The notes below the pieces were generated by a model. The model saw only the letters and a list, made by a program, of their open reading frames with translations. It had not been told where the DNA came from and ran no database searches. The position numbers were made by a program, and so were the translations under genes. Shown piece after piece: positions 14,027 to 63,233 of a stretch of DNA of 64,000 nucleotides; the first letter of the stretch is position 1, and every line of letters begins with the position of its first letter. Origin of the DNA: Patescibacteria group bacterium (GTDB taxonomy: Bacteria > Patescibacteriota > Patescibacteriia > Magasanikbacterales > GWA2-37-8); the NCBI GenBank assembly GCA_004321885.1, contig SCQK01000014.1, forward strand, positions 1-64,000. The letters run 5' to 3'.

Positions 14027-14062
14027 GCCCCCCTTTAGGGGGAGGACAGAGGAGGGGGTTTT
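14027..14062. repeat. Family A C/G palindromic element
   Basis: CCCCCCTTTAGGGGGAGGACAGAGGAGGGGGTTTT. Confidence 0.5.
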
Positions 14063-26786: not shown

Positions 26787-28331
26787 ATGCAGAAAAATAA
26801 AAAAACTACGTTACTTGTCATCATGGACGGCTGGGGGATAGCTGACCCAAAAAATAAAGGCAATCCCGTAACGCCCAAAACCGCGCCCAATTATTTTGCC
26901 TGGTTGAAAAAATATCCCAATACAAAATTGGACGCCAGCGGCGCTTCGGTGGGCCTGTTCAAAGGCGAAGAAGGAAACAGCGAAGCCGGCCATCTCAATT
27001 TGGGCGGGGGCCGCGTGGTAAGGCAAGACGCGCTGTATATTTCCGACGCCATTTCTGACGGCACTTTTTTCAAAAACAACGCCTTTGCCCAGGGCCTGCA
27101 CCATGTAAAAAAATACAATACCGCGGTTCACTTAATGGGTTTGCTTTCCAATCACAACAGCGCCCACTCCTCGCCCGAGCATTTGCTCGCGCTTTTAGAA
27201 TTATTCAGGCGGGAGAAAATAAAAAATGTATATTTGCATCTGTTCACCGACGGTCGCGACAGCGGCCAGCACGACGCGCCGGCGCATTTTGCCAAACTGG
27301 AAAAGCATTTGGGCCAGGCAGTCGTGGCCACGGTAATGGGCCGGTTTTATTCAATGGACAGAAACAAAAAATGGGAGCGCACGAAATTGGCGTATGAAGC
27401 GATGGCGCTCGGCAGGGGCCGGCCGGCCAAAAGCGCCCAAGACGCCATCGCCCAGGCGTACAATTTAGGCGAAACCGATGAATTCATAAAACCCACGGTC
27501 ATTATGTGCGGAGACAAGCCGCTCGCGACAATAAAAGACAATGACGTGGTCTTTTTTTTCAACTTGCGCAGCGACCGGGCGCGTCAAATCACCAAAACTT
27601 TTGTTCAGCCTAATTTCAAGCAGGCCAACCCGGGCGCTTTCGTCCGCGCCAATTTTCCCGGAAACACGCGCTTTGTGGCCATGACTGATTTTGGTCCGGA
27701 CTTGCCGGGAATTTTTACCGCCTTTCCCAGCCGCGATGTGGAAAACAGCCTTACGCAAATTCTTTGTCCCAGGCGTCAGCTTTACATCGCCGAATCGGAA
27801 AAATTTGCCCACATCACCTACTTTTTCAATGGCGGCTATGCCCAGCATTTTTGCGACGAGCGCTGGGTAAAAATAGAATCGCCCGAGGTGAACAGCTATG
27901 CTCAAAAACCCGAGATGAGCGCTAAAATCGTGGGCGATTATGTGGTCGGCGCTTTGGAATCCGGGGAATTTGAATTTATCGCGGTCAATTTTGCCAATCC
28001 GGATATGGTGGGCCACACCGGCAATTTTGAAGCCGGACAAATCGCCGTCAGTACAGTTGACAAAGAGGTGGCGCGGCTGGTAAAAATAGTAGAGAAAAAC
28101 CGGGGGCAAGCCCTGATAACGTCCGACCATGGTAACATAGAAGAGATGATTGATTTGGAGACTGGCGAAGTGGACACTGAACATTCCACCAATCCGGTGC
28201 CGGTTATTCTGGCCGGAACGCGCGCCCAGCGCAAATTGCCCAGGGGTAAATTGGCGAACGTGGCGCCGACAATTTTAAGAATGATGGACATAGATAAACC
28301 CGCCGAGATGAGCGGCAAGAGTTTAATTTAA
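26787..28331 (+). CDS. gpmI: 2,3-bisphosphoglycerate-independent phosphoglycerate mutase, copy 1
   Basis: LLVIMDGWGIADP...NSEAGHLNLGGGRVV and C-terminal ITSDHGN...EHSTNPVP metal-binding motifs. Confidence 0.85.
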   Translation: MQKNKKTTLLVIMDGWGIADPKNKGNPVTPKTAPNYFAWLKKYPNTKLDASGASVGLFKGEEGNSEAGHLNLGGGRVVRQDALYISDAISDGTFFKNNAFAQGLHHVKKYNTAVHLMGLLSNHNSAHSSPEHLLALLELFRREKIKNVYLHLFTDGRDSGQHDAPAHFAKLEKHLGQAVVATVMGRFYSMDRNKKWERTKLAYEAMALGRGRPAKSAQDAIAQAYNLGETDEFIKPTVIMCGDKPLATIKDNDVVFFFNLRSDRARQITKTFVQPNFKQANPGAFVRANFPGNTRFVAMTDFGPDLPGIFTAFPSRDVENSLTQILCPRRQLYIAESEKFAHITYFFNGGYAQHFCDERWVKIESPEVNSYAQKPEMSAKIVGDYVVGALESGEFEFIAVNFANPDMVGHTGNFEAGQIAVSTVDKEVARLVKIVEKNRGQALITSDHGNIEEMIDLETGEVDTEHSTNPVPVILAGTRAQRKLPRGKLANVAPTILRMMDIDKPAEMSGKSLI

Positions 28332-28335
28332 TTTA

Positions 28336-28379
28336 CCCCCTCCTGTCCCCCCCTTATTAAGGGGGAGGGAGGTTAGGGG
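28336..28379. repeat. Family A C/G palindromic element between the two gpmI copies
   Basis: CCCCCTCCTGTCCCCCCC-ttattaa-GGGGGAGGGAGGTTAGGGG. Confidence 0.55.
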
Positions 28380-28387
28380 TATATATT

Positions 28388-29965
28388 ATGTCTCGTCCAG
28401 TAGTATTGGCGATTTTAGACGGCTGGGGCGTGGCTCCGGCCAGCGAAGGCAACGCGGTAACGCGGGCGAACGCGCCCAATTTTTTGAAATACTTGAAGGA
28501 TTACCCCACCATGACCATTTACGCCGCCGGCAACGAGGTCGGTTTGCTTTTCGGCGAGATGGGCAATTCGGAAGTGGGGCATTTGAACATCGGCGCCGGC
28601 CGCGTTTATTATCAAACTTGCCCCCGCATCAACAAAGAAATAGCCGAGGGCGGTTTTTTTGAAAACCGCGCCTTTATGGCGGCCATAGAAAAAGTAAAAC
28701 AAACCAACGGGCGCCTGCACCTTATCGGCCTGGTTTCTTCGGGCAATGTTCATTCCAGCAACGAGCATTTGTACGCGCTTTTGGAATTGTGCCGTAGGCA
28801 AAAATTGGAGCAGACCCGGGTCGCGATTCACGTAATTTTGGACGGCCGCGATTGCACGTATAATTCTGGCAAGGATTTTGTGGCCGAGCTTAATAAAAAA
28901 ATGAAAGAGCTTAAAGTCGGTGTCATTGCCTCGGTCTGCGGCCGTTTTTTCGCCATGGACAGGGACAACCGCTGGGACAGGGTGGAAAAGGCCTACAAAG
29001 CGATGGCGAGCGGCGAGGCCGAAAGATATTCCGAAGACCCGCTGGAAGCGATAAAAATTTCTTATGAGCAAAAGAATTTTGACGAAGAATTCACGCCGAC
29101 CGTCATCGTGAAAAACGGCGAGCCGGCGGCGCCGGCGCGCGGCGGCGACGCGGCGATTTTTTTCAACTTTCGCGCCGACCGCGCGCGCCAACTCACGCAG
29201 GCTTTTGTGGTGCCGTCGTTTAACAAATTTCCCAAAAAACCCCTCAATGATTTTTTGTTTGTGACCATGAGCGAGTATGAAAAAGAAACGCCGGTGCTGG
29301 TGGCCTATGCCCCGCAGATAGTGCCGAATTGCCTGGCTGAGGTTATAAGTCGTGCCGGACTAAAACAATTTCATATAGCTGAAACCGAAAAGTACGCGCA
29401 CGTTACTTTTTTTCTGAACGGCACGGTGGAACAGCCCTTTCCGGGCGAAGAGCGTTTGCTGGTGCCGTCGCCGCATGTTTCCAGCTATGCCGAGGTGCCG
29501 CAGATGTCGGCCGTGGAAGTAGCCAAAGAAACAATAAAAGCCATTGCGAGCAAAAAGTATGATTTTATCGTGGTGAATCTGGCGAACCCTGATATGGTGG
29601 GGCACACTGGGGTGTTGGATGCCGGCATCAGGGCTTGCGAGGTGAGCGACAAGTGCTTGGGGGAAATCGCGGACCAGGCGCTGGCGCAAGACGGGATGCT
29701 TTTAATAACGGCGGACCACGGCAATGTGGAGGAGATGCTCAACTTGCAGACTGGGGAGATAGACAAAGAACATTCCACCAATCCGGTGCCGTTTATAGTG
29801 GTGGCCAAAGAATTTTTGGGCCAGGCCGGCTCATCCGGCGACGCGCCTGAGGGCGATTTGAGTCTAATGCATCCGGTGGGGGTCTTGGCCGATGTGGCGC
29901 CAACGATTTTGAAATTGATGGGGTTGCCCCAGCCGCCCGAGATGACTGGCCAGCCGTTAATCTAG
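28388..29965 (+). CDS. gpmI: 2,3-bisphosphoglycerate-independent phosphoglycerate mutase, copy 2 (divergent tandem paralog)
   Basis: VLAILDGWGVAP...NSEVGHLNIGAGRV and ITADHGN...EHSTNPVP; the same iPGM motifs as the preceding gene with clearly different sequence. Confidence 0.85.
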   Translation: MSRPVVLAILDGWGVAPASEGNAVTRANAPNFLKYLKDYPTMTIYAAGNEVGLLFGEMGNSEVGHLNIGAGRVYYQTCPRINKEIAEGGFFENRAFMAAIEKVKQTNGRLHLIGLVSSGNVHSSNEHLYALLELCRRQKLEQTRVAIHVILDGRDCTYNSGKDFVAELNKKMKELKVGVIASVCGRFFAMDRDNRWDRVEKAYKAMASGEAERYSEDPLEAIKISYEQKNFDEEFTPTVIVKNGEPAAPARGGDAAIFFNFRADRARQLTQAFVVPSFNKFPKKPLNDFLFVTMSEYEKETPVLVAYAPQIVPNCLAEVISRAGLKQFHIAETEKYAHVTFFLNGTVEQPFPGEERLLVPSPHVSSYAEVPQMSAVEVAKETIKAIASKKYDFIVVNLANPDMVGHTGVLDAGIRACEVSDKCLGEIADQALAQDGMLLITADHGNVEEMLNLQTGEIDKEHSTNPVPFIVVAKEFLGQAGSSGDAPEGDLSLMHPVGVLADVAPTILKLMGLPQPPEMTGQPLI

Positions 29966-31141: not shown

Positions 31142-31240
31142 GTATTTTTTAGCTAACTTAACACAAACTTCCCGCGCAAAGGCGAGAGAATATAGAAGTT
31201 TATCATAATAGAGCCAAAAGTCAACCTTGACACGATGTCG

Positions 31241-31342
31241 CTGGCTCCATGCTGTGCGTGGAGCCAGAGTGCATTACGGCTCCATAGTCCCCGACTTAGT
31301 CGGGGCTGTGGAGCCAGCGAAGAATGGCGCCCTGGGCGCCAT
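31241..31342. repeat. Cluster of three GC-rich hairpins with reused stem sequence (CTGGCTCCA/TGGAGCCAG twice; nested CCCCGAC/GTCGGGG; ATGGCGCC/GGCGCCAT)
   Basis: Perfect inverted repeats read from the sequence in the 330-nt gap between the minus-strand DHH gene start and the truncated MTase. Confidence 0.5.
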
Positions 31343-31471
31343 AAGCCGCTGCGAACACATCCAGTCCGCGCGAGCGCCGTTCAAATTTCTTCAGCCCGGC
31401 AATCACTAAGCATTTGCTTTTTTCCCTTTTTTTTAGTAAAATAAAGCCTACGAAATACAGTAATTCAACCT

Positions 31472-33172: not shown

Positions 33173-35869
33173 ATGAAAGAACTTCCAAAGGCCTACGAGC
33201 CGCGAAAATACGAGGATAAGATATATGAACGTTGGGAAAAGAGCGGGTTGTTCAACCCCGATGTTTGTGTGGAAAAAGGCGTTGCCGATAAGAAGGCGAA
33301 GCCGTTTTCCATTGTCCTGCCTCCGCCCAACGTGACCGGCACCTTGCATTTGGGCCAGGCCTTGATGCTGTCGGTGCAGGATTTGCTGGTTCGTTATCAC
33401 CGCATGAAGAGCGACAAGACCTTGTGGGTGCCGGGCACTGACCACGCGGCAATTGCCACGCAGACCAAAGTGGAGAAATTGCTGATTCAGCAGGGGGTGA
33501 AAGACCCGCGCGCTGAATTGGGCCGGGAAAAATTTTTGAAAGAAGTAAACAAATTCGCGCAGGAATCGCACGATATCATCGTGAACCAGTGCCGCAAAAT
33601 GGGCGCGTCCTTGGATTGGACGCGTGAGGCCTTTACTTTGGACGAGCAAAGAAATCTGGCCGTGCGCACGATGTTCAAGATGATGTACGACGACGGCCTT
33701 ATTTACCGCGGCCATCGCATTGTAAACTGGTGCCCGCGTTGTCATTCCACTCTGGCCGACGACGAGGTGGAGTACAAAGCCCAGGCCGGCAAACTTTACA
33801 CTTTTAGATACGCCGATGATTTTCCTTTTGCCATTTCCACCACCAGGCCCGAAACCAAGCTGGGCGATACGGCCGTGGCCGTAAACCCGAACGACGAGCG
33901 CTATAAAAAATATATCGGCAAAGTTTTTGAAGTAAAAAAATTCGCGGGCGGACCGGATTTGAAAATAAAAGTGATTGCCAGCGAAGACGTGGACACAGAC
34001 TTTGGCACGGGCGCGCTTGGCGTTACTCCGGCGCACAGCTTTGCTGACTATGAAATGGCGCAAAAAAATAAATTGCTGGTGATTAAAGTGATTGATGAAG
34101 ACGGGAAAATTACCAAAGAGGCCGGCAAGCATTATAAGGGGTTCACGGTTTTGGAAGCGCGGGCGCGGGTGCTGGAAAACCTGCGCGAATTGAATTTGCT
34201 GGAAAAAGAGGAAGATGTTTCCAATAATTTATCTGTTTGCTATCGCTGTGAAAGTCCGGTGGAGCCTATTCCCTCCAAGCAGTGGTTCATAGACGTGAAC
34301 AAGAAATTCAGAATCAAGAATGAAGAATTAAGAATAAAGGGATTGAAAGTGAACAGCGAAGTGACGTTGAAACAATTGATGTCGGTCGCGGTGAAAAATG
34401 GACAGATAGAAATTATTCCGGACCGCTTCAACAAAACTTATTTTCATTGGATAGACAATTTGCGCGACTGGTGTATCAGCCGGCAAATTTGGTACGGCCA
34501 CCAGATTCCGGTGTGGTACAAAGGCGAGGAAATTTTCGTGGACGTAGAGGCGCCAAAGGGCGATGGCTGGGCTCAAGACCCAGATACGCTGGATACCTGG
34601 TTCAGCTCTGGCCTGTGGACTTTTTCCACACTTGGCTGGCCCGACAAGACCGATGACTTGAAAAATTTTCATCCCACCTCGGTGATGGAAACCGGTTATG
34701 ATATTTTATTTTTTTGGGTGGCGCGCATGATTTTGATGACGACTTACGCGTTGGGCGATATTCCTTTTGAAAAGGTTTATCTGCACGGTTTGGTGCGCGA
34801 CGAGCAGGGGCGCAAAATGAGCAAATCGTTGGGTAACGCGATTGACCCGCTGGACATGATAAGAGAGTATGGAGCCGACGCCGTCCGCCTGTCGTTGCTT
34901 ATTGGCACCAGCCCGGGCAATGATATGAAGCTGTCGGTGGAAAAAATCGCTGGTTTTCGCAATTTCACCAACAAGCTGTGGAATATCTGCCGGTTTATGC
35001 TGATGAACATCGGCAAGGATGTCATTCTGACCCCGACTCAGTCGGGGGAAGAATCCCTTTCAAAAACCCTGGCCGACAAGTGGATTTTGAATCGGTTGCG
35101 CGCAGTAATTAATATTGTCACAGAAAATATTGAAAAGTTTAATTTTTCTTACGCCGGAGAGCGTCTGCGCGATTTCACCTGGGGCGATTTGGCGGATTGG
35201 TATTTGGAGGTCGCAAAAATAGAAGGTGATAAGTCGGAAATCTTAAATTACATTTTAAGCGTGATTTTGAGACTTTGGCACCCGTTCATGCCCTTTGTCA
35301 CCGAACAAATTTGGCAGGATATTTATGGGAAAGAAAAAATGTTGATGGTGGAAAAATGGCCGGAAAAAATTAAATCGTTAGTTGATTCTTCACTCATCGG
35401 GATGACTGATTTTGATTATGCGAGAAATATAATTTTTCAACTTCGCTCATTGCGAGCTGAATATAAAATTGAACCGACAAAAAAAATAAATGTCGCAATC
35501 AGCGCGGGCGCTAAAGAACAAATTTTGAAGGATAACAAGGAGATGATCGTTAAAATGGCTAAAATTGATAATTTGATAATTGGAAAAGAGGTAAAAAAAC
35601 CGATAAACGCAGTTACATTTTTTGAACCGCCATGTGTTACTGTTTTTATGGACCTGGCTGGTTCGGTGGATTTGGTCAAGGAAAAAGAACGGCTGAAAAA
35701 AGAAATTGAGCAAACGGAAAAATATGTGGAAATACAAAAGAAAAAATTAGCCAACAAAGAATTCGTGGCAAACGCCCCCGCAGAAATCGTGGAAAAAGAA
35801 CAGCAGAAACTTTCTGAATGTGAAGCGAAGCTGGGGAAATTAAAAAATCAATTGAAGAGTCTAAAATGA
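33173..35869 (+). CDS. valS: Valyl-tRNA synthetase
   Basis: PPPNVTGTLHLGQAL (HIGH region), KMSKSLGN, and a C-terminal coiled-coil. Confidence 0.9.
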   Translation: MKELPKAYEPRKYEDKIYERWEKSGLFNPDVCVEKGVADKKAKPFSIVLPPPNVTGTLHLGQALMLSVQDLLVRYHRMKSDKTLWVPGTDHAAIATQTKVEKLLIQQGVKDPRAELGREKFLKEVNKFAQESHDIIVNQCRKMGASLDWTREAFTLDEQRNLAVRTMFKMMYDDGLIYRGHRIVNWCPRCHSTLADDEVEYKAQAGKLYTFRYADDFPFAISTTRPETKLGDTAVAVNPNDERYKKYIGKVFEVKKFAGGPDLKIKVIASEDVDTDFGTGALGVTPAHSFADYEMAQKNKLLVIKVIDEDGKITKEAGKHYKGFTVLEARARVLENLRELNLLEKEEDVSNNLSVCYRCESPVEPIPSKQWFIDVNKKFRIKNEELRIKGLKVNSEVTLKQLMSVAVKNGQIEIIPDRFNKTYFHWIDNLRDWCISRQIWYGHQIPVWYKGEEIFVDVEAPKGDGWAQDPDTLDTWFSSGLWTFSTLGWPDKTDDLKNFHPTSVMETGYDILFFWVARMILMTTYALGDIPFEKVYLHGLVRDEQGRKMSKSLGNAIDPLDMIREYGADAVRLSLLIGTSPGNDMKLSVEKIAGFRNFTNKLWNICRFMLMNIGKDVILTPTQSGEESLSKTLADKWILNRLRAVINIVTENIEKFNFSYAGERLRDFTWGDLADWYLEVAKIEGDKSEILNYILSVILRLWHPFMPFVTEQIWQDIYGKEKMLMVEKWPEKIKSLVDSSLIGMTDFDYARNIIFQLRSLRAEYKIEPTKKINVAISAGAKEQILKDNKEMIVKMAKIDNLIIGKEVKKPINAVTFFEPPCVTVFMDLAGSVDLVKEKERLKKEIEQTEKYVEIQKKKLANKEFVANAPAEIVEKEQQKLSECEAKLGKLKNQLKSLK

Positions 35870-35895
35870 TGGGTTTATAAGTTTGGATATTTTTT

Positions 35896-37086
35896 ATGAA
35901 AATCAACACAGACGCCAAAAAAATAGAAGAATTTTTAACGCGGGGAGTGGAGGCGCTCTATCCCAGCAAAGAGGAGTTTAGGAAAATACTTTCTTCCGGA
36001 AAACGATTGCGCGCTTATCAGGGTTTTGACCCGACCGGTCCATATTTGCATGTTGGCCATGCGATTGGCATCCGGGCGCTGCGTATTTTACAGGAGCTGG
36101 GACATGAAGTGATTTTTTTGGTAGGCGATTTTACGGCAACCATAGGAGACCCCGATAAGGATACGACAAGAGAAATGCTTACTGATGAGCAGATTGAAAA
36201 AAATATGTCCGGGTGGAAAAAGCAAGCTTCACAGTTGATTGATTTTAGAGGAAAGAATCCGGTACAATTCAAACGTAATTCGGAATGGCTCGAAAAATTG
36301 CGTTTGAGAGACGTTCTCCGGATGATGTCAAAAACAACTTTACAAAGAACCATGGAAAGAGATTTGTTTGATAGACGTTTGAAAGCTGCGGATCCGATCC
36401 GCTTGCATGAGGTGGCGTATCCCGCGATGCAAGGTTATGACGGAGTGGCGATGGACGTTGACATAGAGATTGGAGGAGCCGATCAGACTTTTAATATGTT
36501 GACTGGTCGTGTTTTGACCAAGGCATATTTAAATAAGGAAAAATTCGTGCGGGCTAATAGAATGATGAACGCGCCGGATAAAATTACAATGAGTAAAACC
36601 AAGGGTAACGGCATAAATTTATCCGATGAACCGAAGGATATGTACGGCAAGGCCATGTCTTATGCTGATAGTGAAATAATTAATGGTTTGGAATTGTTGA
36701 CTGAATTGCCAATGGCTAAAGTTGAAGAAATTAAACAATCTTTAGAAAGAGGAGAGAACCCCATTAAATACAAAAAACTGATGGCTTTTGAGATAGTAAA
36801 AATTATCAAGGGCGAGCAGACGGCTCTGAAAGCCCAGCAACATTTTGAAAGCGTTTTTCAAAGCAAGGCTAAACCGGAAGGGATGCCGGAAGTGAAGCCG
36901 AGCGTTTATGATATTATCGCGGTGCTCGTTGAATCAAAAATATGTCCGAGTAAAGGAGAAGCTCGGCGCGTCATCGCCCAGGGTGGAGTAAAAATAAACG
37001 ACAAAAAAGTTGAAGGGATTGAGGCGAGAGTGAAAGCGGGGGATGTGGTGCAGAAGGGGAGCCGGTGGTTTGTGAGAGTTCTATGA
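35896..37086 (+). CDS. tyrS: Tyrosyl-tRNA synthetase
   Basis: GFDPTGPYLHVGH, a KMSKS-like MSKTKG, and a C-terminal S4 domain (GEARRVIAQGGVKINDKKV). Confidence 0.85.
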   Translation: MKINTDAKKIEEFLTRGVEALYPSKEEFRKILSSGKRLRAYQGFDPTGPYLHVGHAIGIRALRILQELGHEVIFLVGDFTATIGDPDKDTTREMLTDEQIEKNMSGWKKQASQLIDFRGKNPVQFKRNSEWLEKLRLRDVLRMMSKTTLQRTMERDLFDRRLKAADPIRLHEVAYPAMQGYDGVAMDVDIEIGGADQTFNMLTGRVLTKAYLNKEKFVRANRMMNAPDKITMSKTKGNGINLSDEPKDMYGKAMSYADSEIINGLELLTELPMAKVEEIKQSLERGENPIKYKKLMAFEIVKIIKGEQTALKAQQHFESVFQSKAKPEGMPEVKPSVYDIIAVLVESKICPSKGEARRVIAQGGVKINDKKVEGIEARVKAGDVVQKGSRWFVRVL

Positions 37087-38822
37087 AGATAATTACAGAC
37101 AAAATTGAGAAGTTTTTAACGGAAGCCGGAATCGTCGGTGAAATTAAATTTAAAAAACCCGATCCAAAAATATTGGATGTTTTTGATTACGATATTGCTA
37201 TTCCTTGTTTTAATTTAAAAACGAGGGTGCAAGATAACGCGGAAGGGGTCATGGTTGCGCAAAGGATTGTTGGTAGTTTGAAAAGCGCAAGGACAGAGCT
37301 GCCGTTTTTAGATGAAGTTAAACAAGTAAGTTCATACGTTAATATTACGTTAAATGCAGGCGAAATAGCTAATTTAGTTTTGCGGCAAGCCACAAAAAAA
37401 GATTTTGGCGCCAGCAAAACGGGCAAAGGAAAGAAAGTAATGGTGGAGTTCGCGCATCCCAACACGCACAAGCAATTTCACATCGGCCATTTGCGCAATA
37501 TCTGCACCGGCGAAAGCGTGGCGCGTATTTTGGAAAACGCCGGCCACAAAGTTATCCGCGCGAACTATCAGGGCGATGTGGGGATGCACATTGCAAAATG
37601 CCTGTGGGGCATTTTGAAATTTCCAATTTCCAATTTTCAATTTCCAAAAGCGATTGACGAGCGGGTGAAATTGCTTGGCGAAGCGTACGCGAAAGGGGCG
37701 CTGGCTTACGAAGAAAGCGAACTGGCCAAAAAAGAAATTGAAGTCATCAATGAAAAAATTTATTCTAAAAAAGATAAAGATATAAATAAACTTTACAAAG
37801 AAACGCGCGAATGGAGCTTGGAATATTTTGGTAAAATTTACAAACGAGTCGGCAGTAAGTTTGACCGGCTGTATTTTGAATCAGAGACATTCGCGCCGGG
37901 CAAGGACATAGTGCTGGTCGGTTTGAACAAAGGGATTTTCAAGGAAAGCCAGGGCGCGGTAATTTTTGAGGGAGAAAAATACGGCTTGCACAATCGCGTG
38001 TTTTTGAACAGCCGCGGCTTGCCGGTTTACGAAGCCAAAGATTTGGCGCTGGCGAGACTGCAATTTCAGGAATACAAACCAGAATATATTTTACACGTCG
38101 TGGCCAAAGAACAGACAGATTATTTCAAGGTTGTTTTCAAAGCCATGGAGTTTACTTTGCCCGAGAGCAAAGGCCGGGAAAAGCATTTGGTCTATGGCTG
38201 GGTGAGTTTGAAAGAAGGCAAGATGAGTTCGCGTTCGGGCAACGTGGTTTTGGGCGAGTGGCTTTTGGATGAAGTAAAAAAGAAAGTGGCTGAAGCAATG
38301 AAAGAGCACAATGTGCGGGATAGGGAAGGGGTGCTGGAAAAAGTGGCTATGGCCGCGGTGAAGTATGCTTTCCTGCGAACAAGCATCAGCAACGATATTG
38401 TTTTTGATATAAACCAGTCGGTGAGTTTAACCGGGGACAGCGGGCCGTATCTGCAATACATTGTCGCGCGCATTAGTAGCATCCTCAAAAAAGCAGGCAG
38501 GGGTTCGTTTGGTCTCCCCTTTAGAAGGGGAGATGCCCCGCAAGGGCAGAGGGGTATTGAACCGGCAGAAAAATCACTCCTTCTTTCTCTTTCCGAATTT
38601 CCCGAGGTCGCCCAAAGCGCGGCCGAAGAAACAGACCCGTCCAAAATCGCGCATTATCTGCTGGGACTGGCGCAATCATTCAATAGTTTTTACGGCCAGT
38701 GTCCGGTATTACCGGCCGATGAAGAAATGAAAAAATTCAGATTAGCGATAATTAGGGCGGTAAAAAATGTAATGGAAAAAGGATTGCGTTTGCTCGGCAT
38801 TGAGAGCGTGGAAGAGATGTGA
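37083..38822 (+). CDS. argS: Arginyl-tRNA synthetase (carries an in-frame ~27-aa insertion derived from a repeat element)
   Basis: FHIGHLRN...NYQGDVG HIGH region and a C-terminal DALR anticodon-binding domain ending GLRLLGIESVEEM; ATGA overlap with tyrS. Confidence 0.85.
   Translation: MKIITDKIEKFLTEAGIVGEIKFKKPDPKILDVFDYDIAIPCFNLKTRVQDNAEGVMVAQRIVGSLKSARTELPFLDEVKQVSSYVNITLNAGEIANLVLRQATKKDFGASKTGKGKKVMVEFAHPNTHKQFHIGHLRNICTGESVARILENAGHKVIRANYQGDVGMHIAKCLWGILKFPISNFQFPKAIDERVKLLGEAYAKGALAYEESELAKKEIEVINEKIYSKKDKDINKLYKETREWSLEYFGKIYKRVGSKFDRLYFESETFAPGKDIVLVGLNKGIFKESQGAVIFEGEKYGLHNRVFLNSRGLPVYEAKDLALARLQFQEYKPEYILHVVAKEQTDYFKVVFKAMEFTLPESKGREKHLVYGWVSLKEGKMSSRSGNVVLGEWLLDEVKKKVAEAMKEHNVRDREGVLEKVAMAAVKYAFLRTSISNDIVFDINQSVSLTGDSGPYLQYIVARISSILKKAGRGSFGLPFRRGDAPQGQRGIEPAEKSLLLSLSEFPEVAQSAAEETDPSKIAHYLLGLAQSFNSFYGQCPVLPADEEMKKFRLAIIRAVKNVMEKGLRLLGIESVEEM
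38514..38554 (+). repeat. Family A-like C/G palindromic element located inside the argS coding sequence, in frame
   Basis: CTCCCCTTTAGAAGGGGAG followed by GC-rich sequence; it encodes GRGSFGLPFRRGDAPQGQRGIEPAEKS at a position where ArgRS proteins normally have no such segment. Confidence 0.5.
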
Positions 38823-38837
38823 CATGCCATATAATAT

Positions 38838-38872
38838 TCCTCTCCCTCTTAGGAGGAGGATAGAATAGGGGG
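38838..38872. repeat. Family A C/G palindromic element after argS
   Basis: TTCCTCTCCCTC-tta-GGAGGAGGATAGAATAGGGGG. Confidence 0.5.
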
Positions 38873-38877
38873 TATTT

Positions 38878-38898
38878 GGGCAATCCACGCCCTTTTTT
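38878..38898 (+). terminator. Small intrinsic terminator (GGGC-aatccac-GCCC plus T6)
   Basis: 4-bp GC stem followed by TTTTTT, 56 nt after the argS stop. Confidence 0.4.
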
Positions 38899-38920
38899 AA
38901 TTTATCCGCAACTTATCAAC

Positions 38921-38957
38921 TGTACACCTTGACAGTACACCTAACGAGGTGTACTAT
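38921..38957 (+). promoter_or_regulatory. Sigma70-type promoter for the TA operon (TTGACA 38929..38934, 17-nt spacer, TACTAT 38952..38957) with an embedded operator palindrome AGTACACCT-aacg-AGGTGTACT plus direct repeat TGTACACCT
   Basis: Consensus -35, near-consensus -10 and a perfect 9-bp inverted repeat in the spacer; the antitoxin ATG lies 7 nt after the -10, so the mRNA is probably leaderless. Confidence 0.6.
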
Positions 38958-38963
38958 TTATCT

Positions 38964-39185
38964 ATGAAAATCACTATCCACGGTATGTCTAAGATAATAA
39001 AAGAAGAAGGCGTTGAGAGAGTGACTCTTAAACTACCAAAAAGCGTGGCAGTGTATTTTCGCAAAGCTTTTCCGCACGGGAAGCGCAGCGATTTTGTGGC
39101 GCGGCAAATTTTGCGATACAAGCACGAACGGGAAGTGGGCGAGATTGAAGAAAAATTGCGCGAGGCCAGCGCTGGAAGGCAATAA
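38964..39185 (+). CDS. Ribbon-helix-helix type antitoxin (MazE/PemI-like role)
   Basis: Beta-strand-like ERVTLKLPKS then a helix; it sits 7 nt upstream of the PemK/MazF toxin gene and is directly preceded by a promoter-operator palindrome. Confidence 0.55.
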   Translation: MKITIHGMSKIIKEEGVERVTLKLPKSVAVYFRKAFPHGKRSDFVARQILRYKHEREVGEIEEKLREASAGRQ

Positions 39186-39191
39186 TAATTT

Positions 39192-39563
39192 ATGACAAAT
39201 GAATCGGAAAATATGTATTGCGGGGCCATAAAAAGGGGCGAGGTTTTTATCTGCGACCTGGCCGGCAAAAAAGCGTGGGCGCTTGTTCTGCAAGACAATG
39301 TTCTAAACGGCTGTTTGCCCACCGTGGTTTGCGCGCCGATAGAGCCGAGAAAAAAGACAGACAGGTTGTATATCAACGAAGTGGTTTTGCCGGGCGTGGA
39401 GACCGGCTTGGGCAAAGACGGCATTTGCCTGCCTTATAAAATAATTAGTATTGACCGCCGGCGGATTATCGCGAAAAAAGGCGAAGTTTCCAAAGAAAAA
39501 ATGGCAGAGGTTTATCAAGCGCTGGATATTACGTTGGGAAGGTTTAGGGATAAAAAATTTTGA
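39192..39563 (+). CDS. PemK/MazF-family toxin (mRNA interferase)
   Basis: GEVFICDL...KAWALVLQDN...TVVCAPI...LPYKIISIDRRRI aligns with the MazF/PemK fold along its whole length. Confidence 0.7.
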   Translation: MTNESENMYCGAIKRGEVFICDLAGKKAWALVLQDNVLNGCLPTVVCAPIEPRKKTDRLYINEVVLPGVETGLGKDGICLPYKIISIDRRRIIAKKGEVSKEKMAEVYQALDITLGRFRDKKF

Positions 39564-39675: not shown

Positions 39676-40857
39676 ATGAACCGGGAAAAAAATCTGAAGA
39701 CCATGCCGCGTGCGATTTTCGTATCGCACGCATTGCTCCCCGACTACAAGTCGAGTGAGCTCATCAGCCGCCGGCTCAAAGAACTCGGCCAGGGGTGGCC
39801 GGAAAAGGGGAAAGAGCCGGGGTTTATCCACTGGCTAACCTTCCCGGTGGTTCCGCCCCAGGAGAGTGGCGGTCGGCCGATTCTCGTGGATTTTCTTATC
39901 ATTCCGCTTTTCGCCGACGCCTACTTCAGGGCTATCGCCAGCGGCAAGGCCTATGTTTGGGCCTGCGAGGCTGTGGAAAGGGCCGTTGAGAACGCGCTCT
40001 TGGACGGCGTGTCGCCTGACGATATCTGGGTTGGTTGGGGGGCGTTCACTAAGATAGCCACTCATCACGGGAAGCTATTTTTGGAGAACAACCCCAAGTT
40101 CTCCTCAAATTCAACCCATGGAGACGCTGGCACTGGCGCGTTGGTGATAGAAGCTATCCTAGAAGCCGGCTTCAAGCCTGGCTTTAAGGTAGCGGTAATC
40201 GGCGCCAATGGGGCCATTGGTGACGCGGTTAGTCGCGTTCTTCCTTCCCTATCCCCGGCGAGTATCATGCTTGTGGGCAGGGAAGACGCGCCCGGGCAGG
40301 ACCGCAATTTTCTGCGTCTGCGGGAATTGGGCGTGTGCGTGGCGCAGAAAGTGAACGGCGGCCAAACCAAAGTCACCACGCACCAGGACAAGCGCACGGC
40401 CTGTCTGGAACAGGGAAGCGACCTGGTCATAGTCGCGACAAGCGGCAGTACGGTCGTTCGTCCCACTGAAGTTCCACATGGCGCGCTGGTGCTGGACATC
40501 ACGACGCCGAGCGCGTGCGGAACAGATCCGCGCGGGTGGGAGGGCAAGATGGTAGTTTTGGCCGGTTGCGGACAGTTTCTTCCGGGTGTTCTCCCGCTGG
40601 TCTTCGGCGAGACTGGCGGCGAGCCCATACTTGACGTCGGCGCCGGCGGCGCACTCTGCTTGTGGGGTTGCACGGGCGAAACAATCTCCCGTGCGGTTTT
40701 TGGGGTTCGCGGTCATCTCGCCGGACCCGAGATCCCCTTGGAAGCGGTTACGCAATGCGCCGAGCACTTTAGGGGGCTCGGCTTTGCGCCCCAGCCTTTC
40801 ACGGCGTTCGGAAAGTCCGTCGCGACCGACGCCGTGCGCCAGTTCGTCGCCGCGTAG
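39676..40857 (+). CDS. NAD(P)-binding (GxxGxxG Rossmann) protein of unknown function; compositionally foreign (GC-rich)
   Basis: KVAVIGANGAIGDAVSRVL in mid-protein; AAGGA RBS upstream; strong intrinsic terminator downstream; GC content is visibly higher than the flanks, with many spurious overlapping ORFs on both strands. Confidence 0.5.
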   Translation: MNREKNLKTMPRAIFVSHALLPDYKSSELISRRLKELGQGWPEKGKEPGFIHWLTFPVVPPQESGGRPILVDFLIIPLFADAYFRAIASGKAYVWACEAVERAVENALLDGVSPDDIWVGWGAFTKIATHHGKLFLENNPKFSSNSTHGDAGTGALVIEAILEAGFKPGFKVAVIGANGAIGDAVSRVLPSLSPASIMLVGREDAPGQDRNFLRLRELGVCVAQKVNGGQTKVTTHQDKRTACLEQGSDLVIVATSGSTVVRPTEVPHGALVLDITTPSACGTDPRGWEGKMVVLAGCGQFLPGVLPLVFGETGGEPILDVGAGGALCLWGCTGETISRAVFGVRGHLAGPEIPLEAVTQCAEHFRGLGFAPQPFTAFGKSVATDAVRQFVAA

Positions 40858-42665: not shown

Positions 42666-42689
42666 GATTCCAGCGTTCGCTGGAATGAC
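42666..42689. repeat. Family B hairpin (inverse orientation): GATTCCAGCG-ttc-GCTGGAATGAC, overlapping the bactofilin start codon
   Basis: Its reverse complement GTCATTCCAGCGAACGCTGGAATC matches the consensus of the 62324 and 63209 copies; the ATG at 42685 lies in the 3' arm. Confidence 0.5.
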
Positions 42690-62323: not shown

Positions 62324-62350
62324 GTCATTCCAGTCCGGGAACTGGAATCC
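62324..62350. repeat. Family B hairpin GTCATTCCAGT-ccggga-ACTGGAATCC between GT2 genes
   Basis: 8-bp perfect stem; ends 10 nt before the ATG at 62360. Confidence 0.5.
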
Positions 62351-63208: not shown

Positions 63209-63233
63209 GTCATTCCCGCGAAGGCGGGAATCC
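63209..63233. repeat. Family B hairpin GTCATTCCCGC-gaag-GCGGGAATCC between GT2 genes
   Basis: Same flanks as 62324; the stem is changed by compensatory substitutions (AGT/ACT becomes CGC/GCG); ends 7 nt before the ATG at 63240. Confidence 0.5.

Follow-up and report, generated by a model that had tools for sequence, protein, structure and literature searches.

The Rickettsia palindromic elements (RPEs) are palindromic repeats found in intergenic DNA and in frame within unrelated housekeeping genes, where the peptides they encode appear compatible with the fold of the host protein (Ogata et al. 2000, via PMC10969869, PMC3184786). Here, a hairpin-forming repeat, designated family A, is described within argS, the gene for arginyl-tRNA synthetase (ArgRS), on a stretch of 64,000 nucleotides from a Patescibacteria contig (GenBank SCQK01000014.1, positions 1 to 64,000; hereafter the window). 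The argS segment is very probably a fragment of a family-A repeat, tolerated as selfish or neutral DNA and forming a disordered surface loop of the enzyme. RPEs are the closest analogue: both are hairpin-forming palindromes located between genes and in frame in housekeeping genes, and both occur in reduced genomes. The two are set apart by their descriptions: RPEs are ~100-150 bp long, restricted to Rickettsia and encode a conserved peptide per family, whereas the argS element is a 42-nt half-module (85-105 nt when complete) with a 19-mer core spread over about nine phylum-level groups, read in four frames and hosted here by a member of the Patescibacteria.

Repetitive extragenic palindromic (REP) sequences and REPINs are mobilised by REP-associated tyrosine transposases (RAYTs) of the Y1 type (PMC3116915; PMC3733652). 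Like family A, they are short (20-40 nt), GC-rich, imperfect palindromes that are multicopy and often paired into larger inverted structures. REPs are not known to create target-site duplications, and none is seen at the argS element either. They differ in being extragenic by definition, whereas the argS copy lies inside an open reading frame (ORF), and in that one end of most REPs bears a GTAG or CGTC tag (PMC3733652), which the argS element lacks. No RAYT gene turned up in the 64-kb window, the ORFs of which were not searched systematically. [quoted passage not shown] Family A is likewise non-autonomous, structured, dispersed and in frame within an ORF, and its full-length relatives are palindromic; neither terminal inverted repeats matching a known insertion sequence, nor target-site duplications, nor a cognate insertion sequence were identified for the argS copy, and its length is far below the usual 100-400 bp. 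The small dispersed repeats (SDRs) of heterocystous cyanobacteria are reportedly hairpin-forming mobile repeats of ~21-27 nt, and are said to be nested in other repeats, to lie beside tandem heptamer repeats and to be confined to one cyanobacterial subgroup. Family A resembles them in that its core 19-mer, in several external copies, lies beside TTCTAAC-type heptamer arrays and is present in Nostoc, and differs, in a comparison by description only, in that its module is found far outside the cyanobacteria.

The core of the element is the 19-mer CTCCCCTTTAGAAGGGGAG at positions 38514-38532, translated as ...GRGSFGLPFRRGDAPQGQRGIEPAEKS... within an argS ORF that is uninterrupted and also open from an upstream GTG at 37065. 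Flanking residues T38513 and A38533 complete the 9-bp stem of hairpin 1, to which a G-U closing pair is added (Table 1). From external copies, the architecture of family A was defined here as a C-run/G-run hairpin whose inner stem is TT...AA (the core 19-mer or a near variant of it), a spacer or mini-hairpin, and (GA)GGGGT; the window module, CTCCCCTTTAGAAGGGGAG-ATGCCCCGCAAGGGCAGA-GGGGT, fits this architecture exactly and encodes residues L478-G491 (LPFRRGDAPQGQRG). A preliminary description of this DNA, made from the sequence alone, had read the hairpin in frame in argS, and its translation agrees with ours. The spacer can form a 5-bp mini-hairpin (TGCCC/GGGCA), like the spacers TGCCGAAGGCG and TGCCCCGAAGGGGC of other copies. 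The GC content of the element is 64%, versus 44-46% in the flanking parts of argS. The ACCCCTC partner of the GGGGT box and a mirrored second hairpin were not found downstream in argS; with the right half thus absent, 38514-38555 represents a half-element. No direct repeat flanks it (TTTGGT/CTCCCC...GGGGT/ATTG, slashes marking the edges). Dinucleotide shuffles of argS seldom produce a perfect hairpin with a stem of 9 bp or more (mean 0.07 per gene). The 81-nt context of the hairpin folds at -30.5 kcal/mol, but with a z-score of only -1.7. A second 9-bp hairpin occurs in argS at 37594, within the conserved KCLWGIL peptide, and a hairpin alone is therefore not decisive.

Table 1. Coordinates of argS, of the parts of its repeat module and of related repeat copies in the window.
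Feature	Position	Strand	Description
argS (arginine--tRNA ligase)	37083..38822	+	579 aa from ATG 37083; based on ORF list, Pfam and AlphaFold
Hairpin 1, TCTCCCCTT-TAG-AAGGGGAGA	38513..38533	+	Perfect 9-bp stem, 3-nt loop
Family-A repeat module	38514..38555	+	Left half of composite palindromic element; 42 nt, 14 codons
Variable spacer TGCCCCGCAAGGGCAGA	38534..38550	+	Based on sequence and comparison of spacers
GGGGT box (within GAGGGGT)	38551..38555	+	Pairs with downstream ACCCCTC in full-length elements
Intergenic family-A copy, CCCCCCTTTAGGGGG-AGGACAGAGGA-GGGGGT	14028..14059	+	Between HIT-domain gene (ends 14023) and DUF5674 gene (starts 14069)
Intergenic family-A copy, ACCCCCTCC-TGT-CCCCCCCTTATTAAGGGGG-AGGGAGGTTA-GGGGT	28335..28380	+	Between two tandem iPGM genes
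Family-B repeat in valS (33173-35869), GTCATTCTGACCCCGACTCAGTCGGGGGAAGAATC	35021..35055		GTCATTCY-hairpin-RGAATC; encodes VILTPTQSGEES in frame
Family-B copy (GTCATTCC-hairpin-GGAATC)	42666-42689	-	Just outside ORF
Family-B copy (GTCATTCC-hairpin-GGAATC)	62324-62349		Just outside ORF
Family-B copy (GTCATTCC-hairpin-GGAATC)	63209-63232		Just outside ORF

The 19-mer was scanned through the GTDB species-representative genome collection, in which none of the matching stretches carries the flanks of the window. Exact matches were present in 67 stretches, with hosts in about nine groups of phylum level, compared with ~4 expected under uniform composition, and several genomes hold 2-5 copies. The hosts include cyanobacteria (Leptolyngbya group, Nostoc, Chamaesiphon and Acaryochloris), many lineages of Patescibacteria (Magasanik-, Specht-, Nomura-, Buchanan-, Peri- and Saccharibacteria, and Absconditabacterales), and members of the Chloroflexota, Cloacimonadota, Nitrospirota, Nitrospinota, Armatimonadota, Bacteroidota and Gammaproteobacteria. 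A GGGGT follows within 28 nt downstream in 54 of 69 copies (78%; background 2.4%), separated from the hairpin by a spacer of 4-23 nt, and the box mostly reads GAGGGGT. Spacers are either ~7 nt long (GYTAGGA) or mini-hairpins, e.g. GTGCCGAAGGCGGA, TGCCCCGAAGGGGCGA or TGCC-NNNN-GGC, and the window spacer resembles those of the external loci L092 (ATGCCGTAGGCAGA-GGGGTATTCG), L082 and L099 (external loci are given L numbers). Over 66 copies the stem-closing pair (-1/+1) covaries (C-G 44, T-A 9, T-G 3), the window carrying T-A. Full-length relatives, composed of GGAGGGGT, a loop, ACCCCTCC and a mirrored hairpin, are composite palindromes of 85-105 nt that fold at -48 to -66 kcal/mol, and were found at L061, L063, L073, L076, L083, L088 and L097. 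The presence of the 19-mer in 67 stretches together with the GGGGT box in 54 of 69 copies is external evidence decisive for repeat membership; judged by its sequence, the argS segment belongs to a family of dispersed hairpin repeats, as the preliminary description had proposed, and is not a chance hairpin.

The 19-mer was absent from viral contigs. No Rfam family reached its gathering threshold in the window or in 20 of the loci, sub-threshold scores being limited to Whalefall-1 (RF01762; 16.9 bits, E=0.1, minus strand, threshold 37) and RsmY (24.4 bits). A search of a literature library found the core sequence in none of its papers, and found no report of repeat insertions in proteins of the candidate phyla radiation (CPR). 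At L085, L104, L122 and L113, from Armatimonadota and Magasanikbacteria, family-A copies adjoin tandem heptamer arrays (TTCTAAC / CTAACTC), a context that recalls the cyanobacterial setting of SDRs and short tandemly repeated repetitive (STRR) sequences.

Within the window, the family-A architecture (a hairpin with GGGGT within 30 nt) occurs at 14028, 28347 and 38516, i.e. three times versus 0.17 in shuffles, and only one of 500 shuffles reached three matches. By BLASTN, the argS element and the intergenic element at 14027 share a 9-mer only (E=11), level with dozens of chance matches, so that membership of the latter in the family follows only from the externally derived architecture. The kinship of these two elements, which the preliminary description had asserted, holds on those grounds and not by BLAST. 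The intergenic copies at 14028 and 28347 take up nearly all of the spacers (46 and 56 nt) that precede the DUF5674 gene and the second gene for cofactor-independent phosphoglycerate mutase (iPGM), and both end 7-10 nt before start codons, a proximity due to the tiny intergenic spacers of this region. A role of the module as a 'portable Shine-Dalgarno' was rejected, as an ORF start follows only 1 of 46 external copies versus 8% at control positions. The two tandem iPGM genes (iPGM_N + Metalloenzyme; 26787-28331 and 28388-29965) are parted only by the family-A element. Across the whole window there are 23 distinct perfect hairpins with a short loop and a stem of 8 bp or more, versus 7.1 in dinucleotide shuffles; small hairpins are generally in excess in this genome.

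The product of the host gene matched the Pfam domains tRNA-synt_1d (residues 109-442, E=7.5e-39) and DALR_1 (residues 457-579, E=8e-31), and its identity as ArgRS is further backed by matches to ArgRS structures in the PDB. It is 100% identical to a single ArgRS that NCBI assigns to a 'Patescibacteria group bacterium' (one member sequence, on one contig), and the next-best homologue in a search of 5.8 billion clusters is only ~60-64% identical. Comparison with homologues revealed a variable linker between ...SILKK and EKxLLL in all 115 aligned sequences, with a length of 15-43 residues over 53 argS loci. ArgRS had been taken in the preliminary description to run straight from SILKKAG to LLSL, which this alignment of homologues contradicts. 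The insert peptide of 27 residues given there is likewise too long: the element encodes 14 residues (L478-G491), and GRGSFG and IEPAEKS are native flanks, IEPAEK being common to many homologues. The linker of the window ArgRS comprises 25 residues, against a clade mode of 17-20, an excess of ~8 that places it near the 87th percentile; the 14 element-coded residues therefore appear to have taken the place of ~6 native linker residues. The ArgRS of P. horikoshii (2zue) and yeast (1bs2) align gap-free through the linker, the window enzyme being equal to them in length there.

The element had been placed between the catalytic core and the DALR domain. As Pfam defines DALR_1 (match 457-579), it lies behind the first helix of that domain and thus not strictly between the two domains. 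In the AlphaFold2 model of ArgRS (mean predicted local distance difference test score, pLDDT, 92; predicted template modelling score, pTM, 0.93), a helix at 454-471 is followed by a coil at 472-493 and a helix at 494-504. Confidence is lower in this coil than anywhere else in the protein (pLDDT 57-72; blocks 72 and 57), and its prediction fits a flexible loop, in agreement with the surface loop suggested earlier.

Contrary to what had been supposed, in-frame repeats of this kind are not rare: valS of the window, argS genes of other lineages and five further housekeeping genes elsewhere contain them. Across the external loci the 19-mer lies inside long ORFs in 26 of 69 copies, the hosts confirmed by Pfam being uvrB (L062), priA (L076), mutL (L084), mgsA/rarA (L089) and tig (L067). 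Four of these five sites fall outside matched Pfam domains, among them the mutL site, which divides the MutL_C match in two; the fifth, in mgsA, is inside the AAA match (95-220). The family-A core is open in four of six frames, giving LPFRRG, SPLEGE, SPSKGE and PLLKG, all of which occur among the spanning ORFs; the frames used in Pfam-confirmed genes are SPLEGE (four genes), SPSKGE (tig) and LPFRRG (argS). Because the 19-mer is read in four different frames, no conserved peptide is under selection. The uvrB gene of L062, from a Magasanikiibacteriota metagenome-assembled genome, apparently carries two in-frame repeats, a full family-A copy (SSPLEGEVARPRDRGV...PYPLLRKEG) and one that is family-B-like (VIASEMKQSPRGDRHGPSGLAMT).

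In L001 (P0080) the same argS linker houses a family-A-like palindrome of 80 nt. Elements of the GTCATTCC...GGAATGAC type occupy it in L002, L003/L004 and L029, and a PLKRG-type hairpin does so in L035. In L032/L033 (~2822-2855) it contains a perfect 15-bp palindrome, AGACACTAAGTGTCC-TATA-GGACACTTAGTGTCT, and in L034 (~1629-1664) a perfect 16-bp palindrome, AAGGACGGACCCTGCA-GGAT-TGCAGGGTCCGTCCTT, with linker lengths near the mode (20 and 24 residues, respectively). Neither of these two palindromes (L032, L034) recurred among the other fetched loci or could be assigned to a repeat family.

A second repeat family, B, is represented in valS of the window (Table 1), where the insert lies between the catalytic body and Anticodon_1, adding ~8 residues relative to the T. 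thermophilus valyl-tRNA synthetase (ValRS). This linker is structurally equivalent to the argS linker site. Family B is also present in argS of L002, L003/L004 (twice) and L029, and in L006, L035, L040, L066, L079 and L099. At 31210-31345, an ORF-free segment dense in hairpins holds CCCCGACTTAGTCGGGG nested in GGCTCCATAG...CTGTGGAGCC, followed by ATGGCGCC-CTG-GGCGCCAT; its CCCCGACTNAGTCGGGG core is also present in the valS insert and the L003 argS insert, and the segment has no Rfam match.

According to the explanation favoured here, a half copy of family A would have become fixed in frame within the length-variable ArgRS loop, between the helix end at 471 and the helix start at 494, exchanging ~6 native residues for 14 (net ~+8). 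The copy, presumably derived from a mobile element, most likely persisted because its hairpin is open in four of the six reading frames and because the loop tolerates almost any sequence and length. Several observations weigh against this account. The net gain is only ~8 residues, and the linker as a whole has a length that is ordinary among ArgRS in general. Neither a target-site duplication nor terminal repeats nor a partner transposase were identified for the argS element, and the three family-A copies of the window are diverged in sequence, with no sign of recent activity in this genome. The 67 matches were calibrated by uniform composition only, without a composition- and hairpin-matched control 19-mer. 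No relative with an empty site was found, the nearest ArgRS being only ~60-64% identical, and the insertion event is consequently one that we infer rather than observe. Finally, the perfect stem within a presumably old, otherwise unconstrained loop is a possible hint of selection on the hairpin.

A rival explanation is that the hairpin is selected at this site for a nucleic-acid function, such as a translational pause at the domain boundary that helps the protein to fold co-translationally, a determinant of stability or of RNase action, or a signal for replication or recombination, in which case class I synthetase genes would repeatedly keep strong hairpins in the linker for that purpose. The valS hairpin occupies the structurally equivalent linker in the same window, the argS stem is perfect and its closing pair covaries across copies, and in 8 of 48 distinct argS genes the most stable 60-nt segment of the gene falls in the linker, versus 2.9 expected. 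However, the last value is inflated, since L001-L004 were fetched for their long inserts, and the unbiased count is 5 of ~44 versus ~2.6 expected. Most homologues have no notable hairpin at the linker, those hairpins that do occur there come from unrelated repeat families with different loops, families that are also intergenic and in other genes, and the covariation fits a DNA-level requirement of a mobile element equally well. A nucleic-acid function is thus considered unlikely. Selection at the protein level, i.e. domestication of the repeat-coded loop as a new interaction surface or as a tRNA contact through its basic RRG/QRG residues, appears very unlikely. The peptide is basic, the loop adjoins the anticodon-binding domain and the gene is essential and intact, but the same DNA is read in four frames in different genes and hence has no conserved peptide. 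Moreover, the loop is low in pLDDT and devoid of secondary structure, the sequences and lengths of homologues are unrelated at this position, and the peptide was found in ArgRS of no second genome. The view of the argS copy as a domesticated functional module, adopted in the preliminary description, is accordingly not supported, with four reading frames in use and no evidence of an acquired function.

That a linker native to all ArgRS, and of ordinary length, came to resemble the repeat by chance or convergence, e.g. through a quasi-palindrome template-switch mutation producing a perfect hairpin in an unconstrained loop, would agree with the other 9-bp hairpin in a conserved peptide of argS and with the chance-level BLAST similarity to the 14027 element. 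This is highly improbable in view of the exact 19-mer, spacer type and GGGGT distance common to dozens of external copies (GGGGT background 2.4%), and of the architecture count of 3 versus 0.17 in the window. An assembly or binning artefact, in which a short repeat shared by the community caused a mis-join or spurious insertion in a metagenome-assembled contig, seems extremely improbable, even though a single assembly carries this ArgRS and the repeat family is widespread in environmental genomes. The reading frame is preserved, the two halves of the gene show equal similarity (~58%) to one set of homologues, which speaks against a chimera, the reads and k-mers used in assembly were probably longer than the 42-nt repeat, and analogous in-frame elements occur in many independent assemblies.

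With respect to the neighbourhood of argS, the order valS-tyrS-argS-(small ORF)-PemK toxin (33173-39563) is kept in a distant (56% identical) Patescibacteria relative, L003/L004. The PemK/MazF toxin gene (39192-39563) is followed by a 393-aa ORF (39676-40857) without a Pfam match, the GC content of which is ~58-62% versus ~45% in neighbouring genes; this stretch may be foreign DNA.

Tolerance of the argS element as selfish or neutral DNA would mean that minimal Patescibacteria genomes, too, carry selfish hairpin repeats within essential translation and repair genes, and that loops and linkers outside conserved domains serve as safe harbours for such repeats. For annotation, it accounts for odd low-complexity peptides (PLEGE, PLLKG, PFRRG, SFPRRRES and the like) in otherwise conserved proteins, which should not be taken for functional inserts. 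More tentatively, and as a possibility that we would not yet favour, family A may constitute a class of mobile composite hairpins that is undescribed, ultra-short (~40-100 nt) and common to several phyla. In an RPE-like manner, its members would repeatedly colonise essential genes at their loops and inter-domain linkers (argS here, and uvrB, priA, mutL, mgsA and tig elsewhere, with valS and other argS genes occupied by sister families), and class I synthetases may offer a preferred landing site in the linker that precedes their anticodon-binding domain. If the family is indeed mobile across phyla, its invariant 19-nt hairpin would provide a handle for finding the mobilising machinery.

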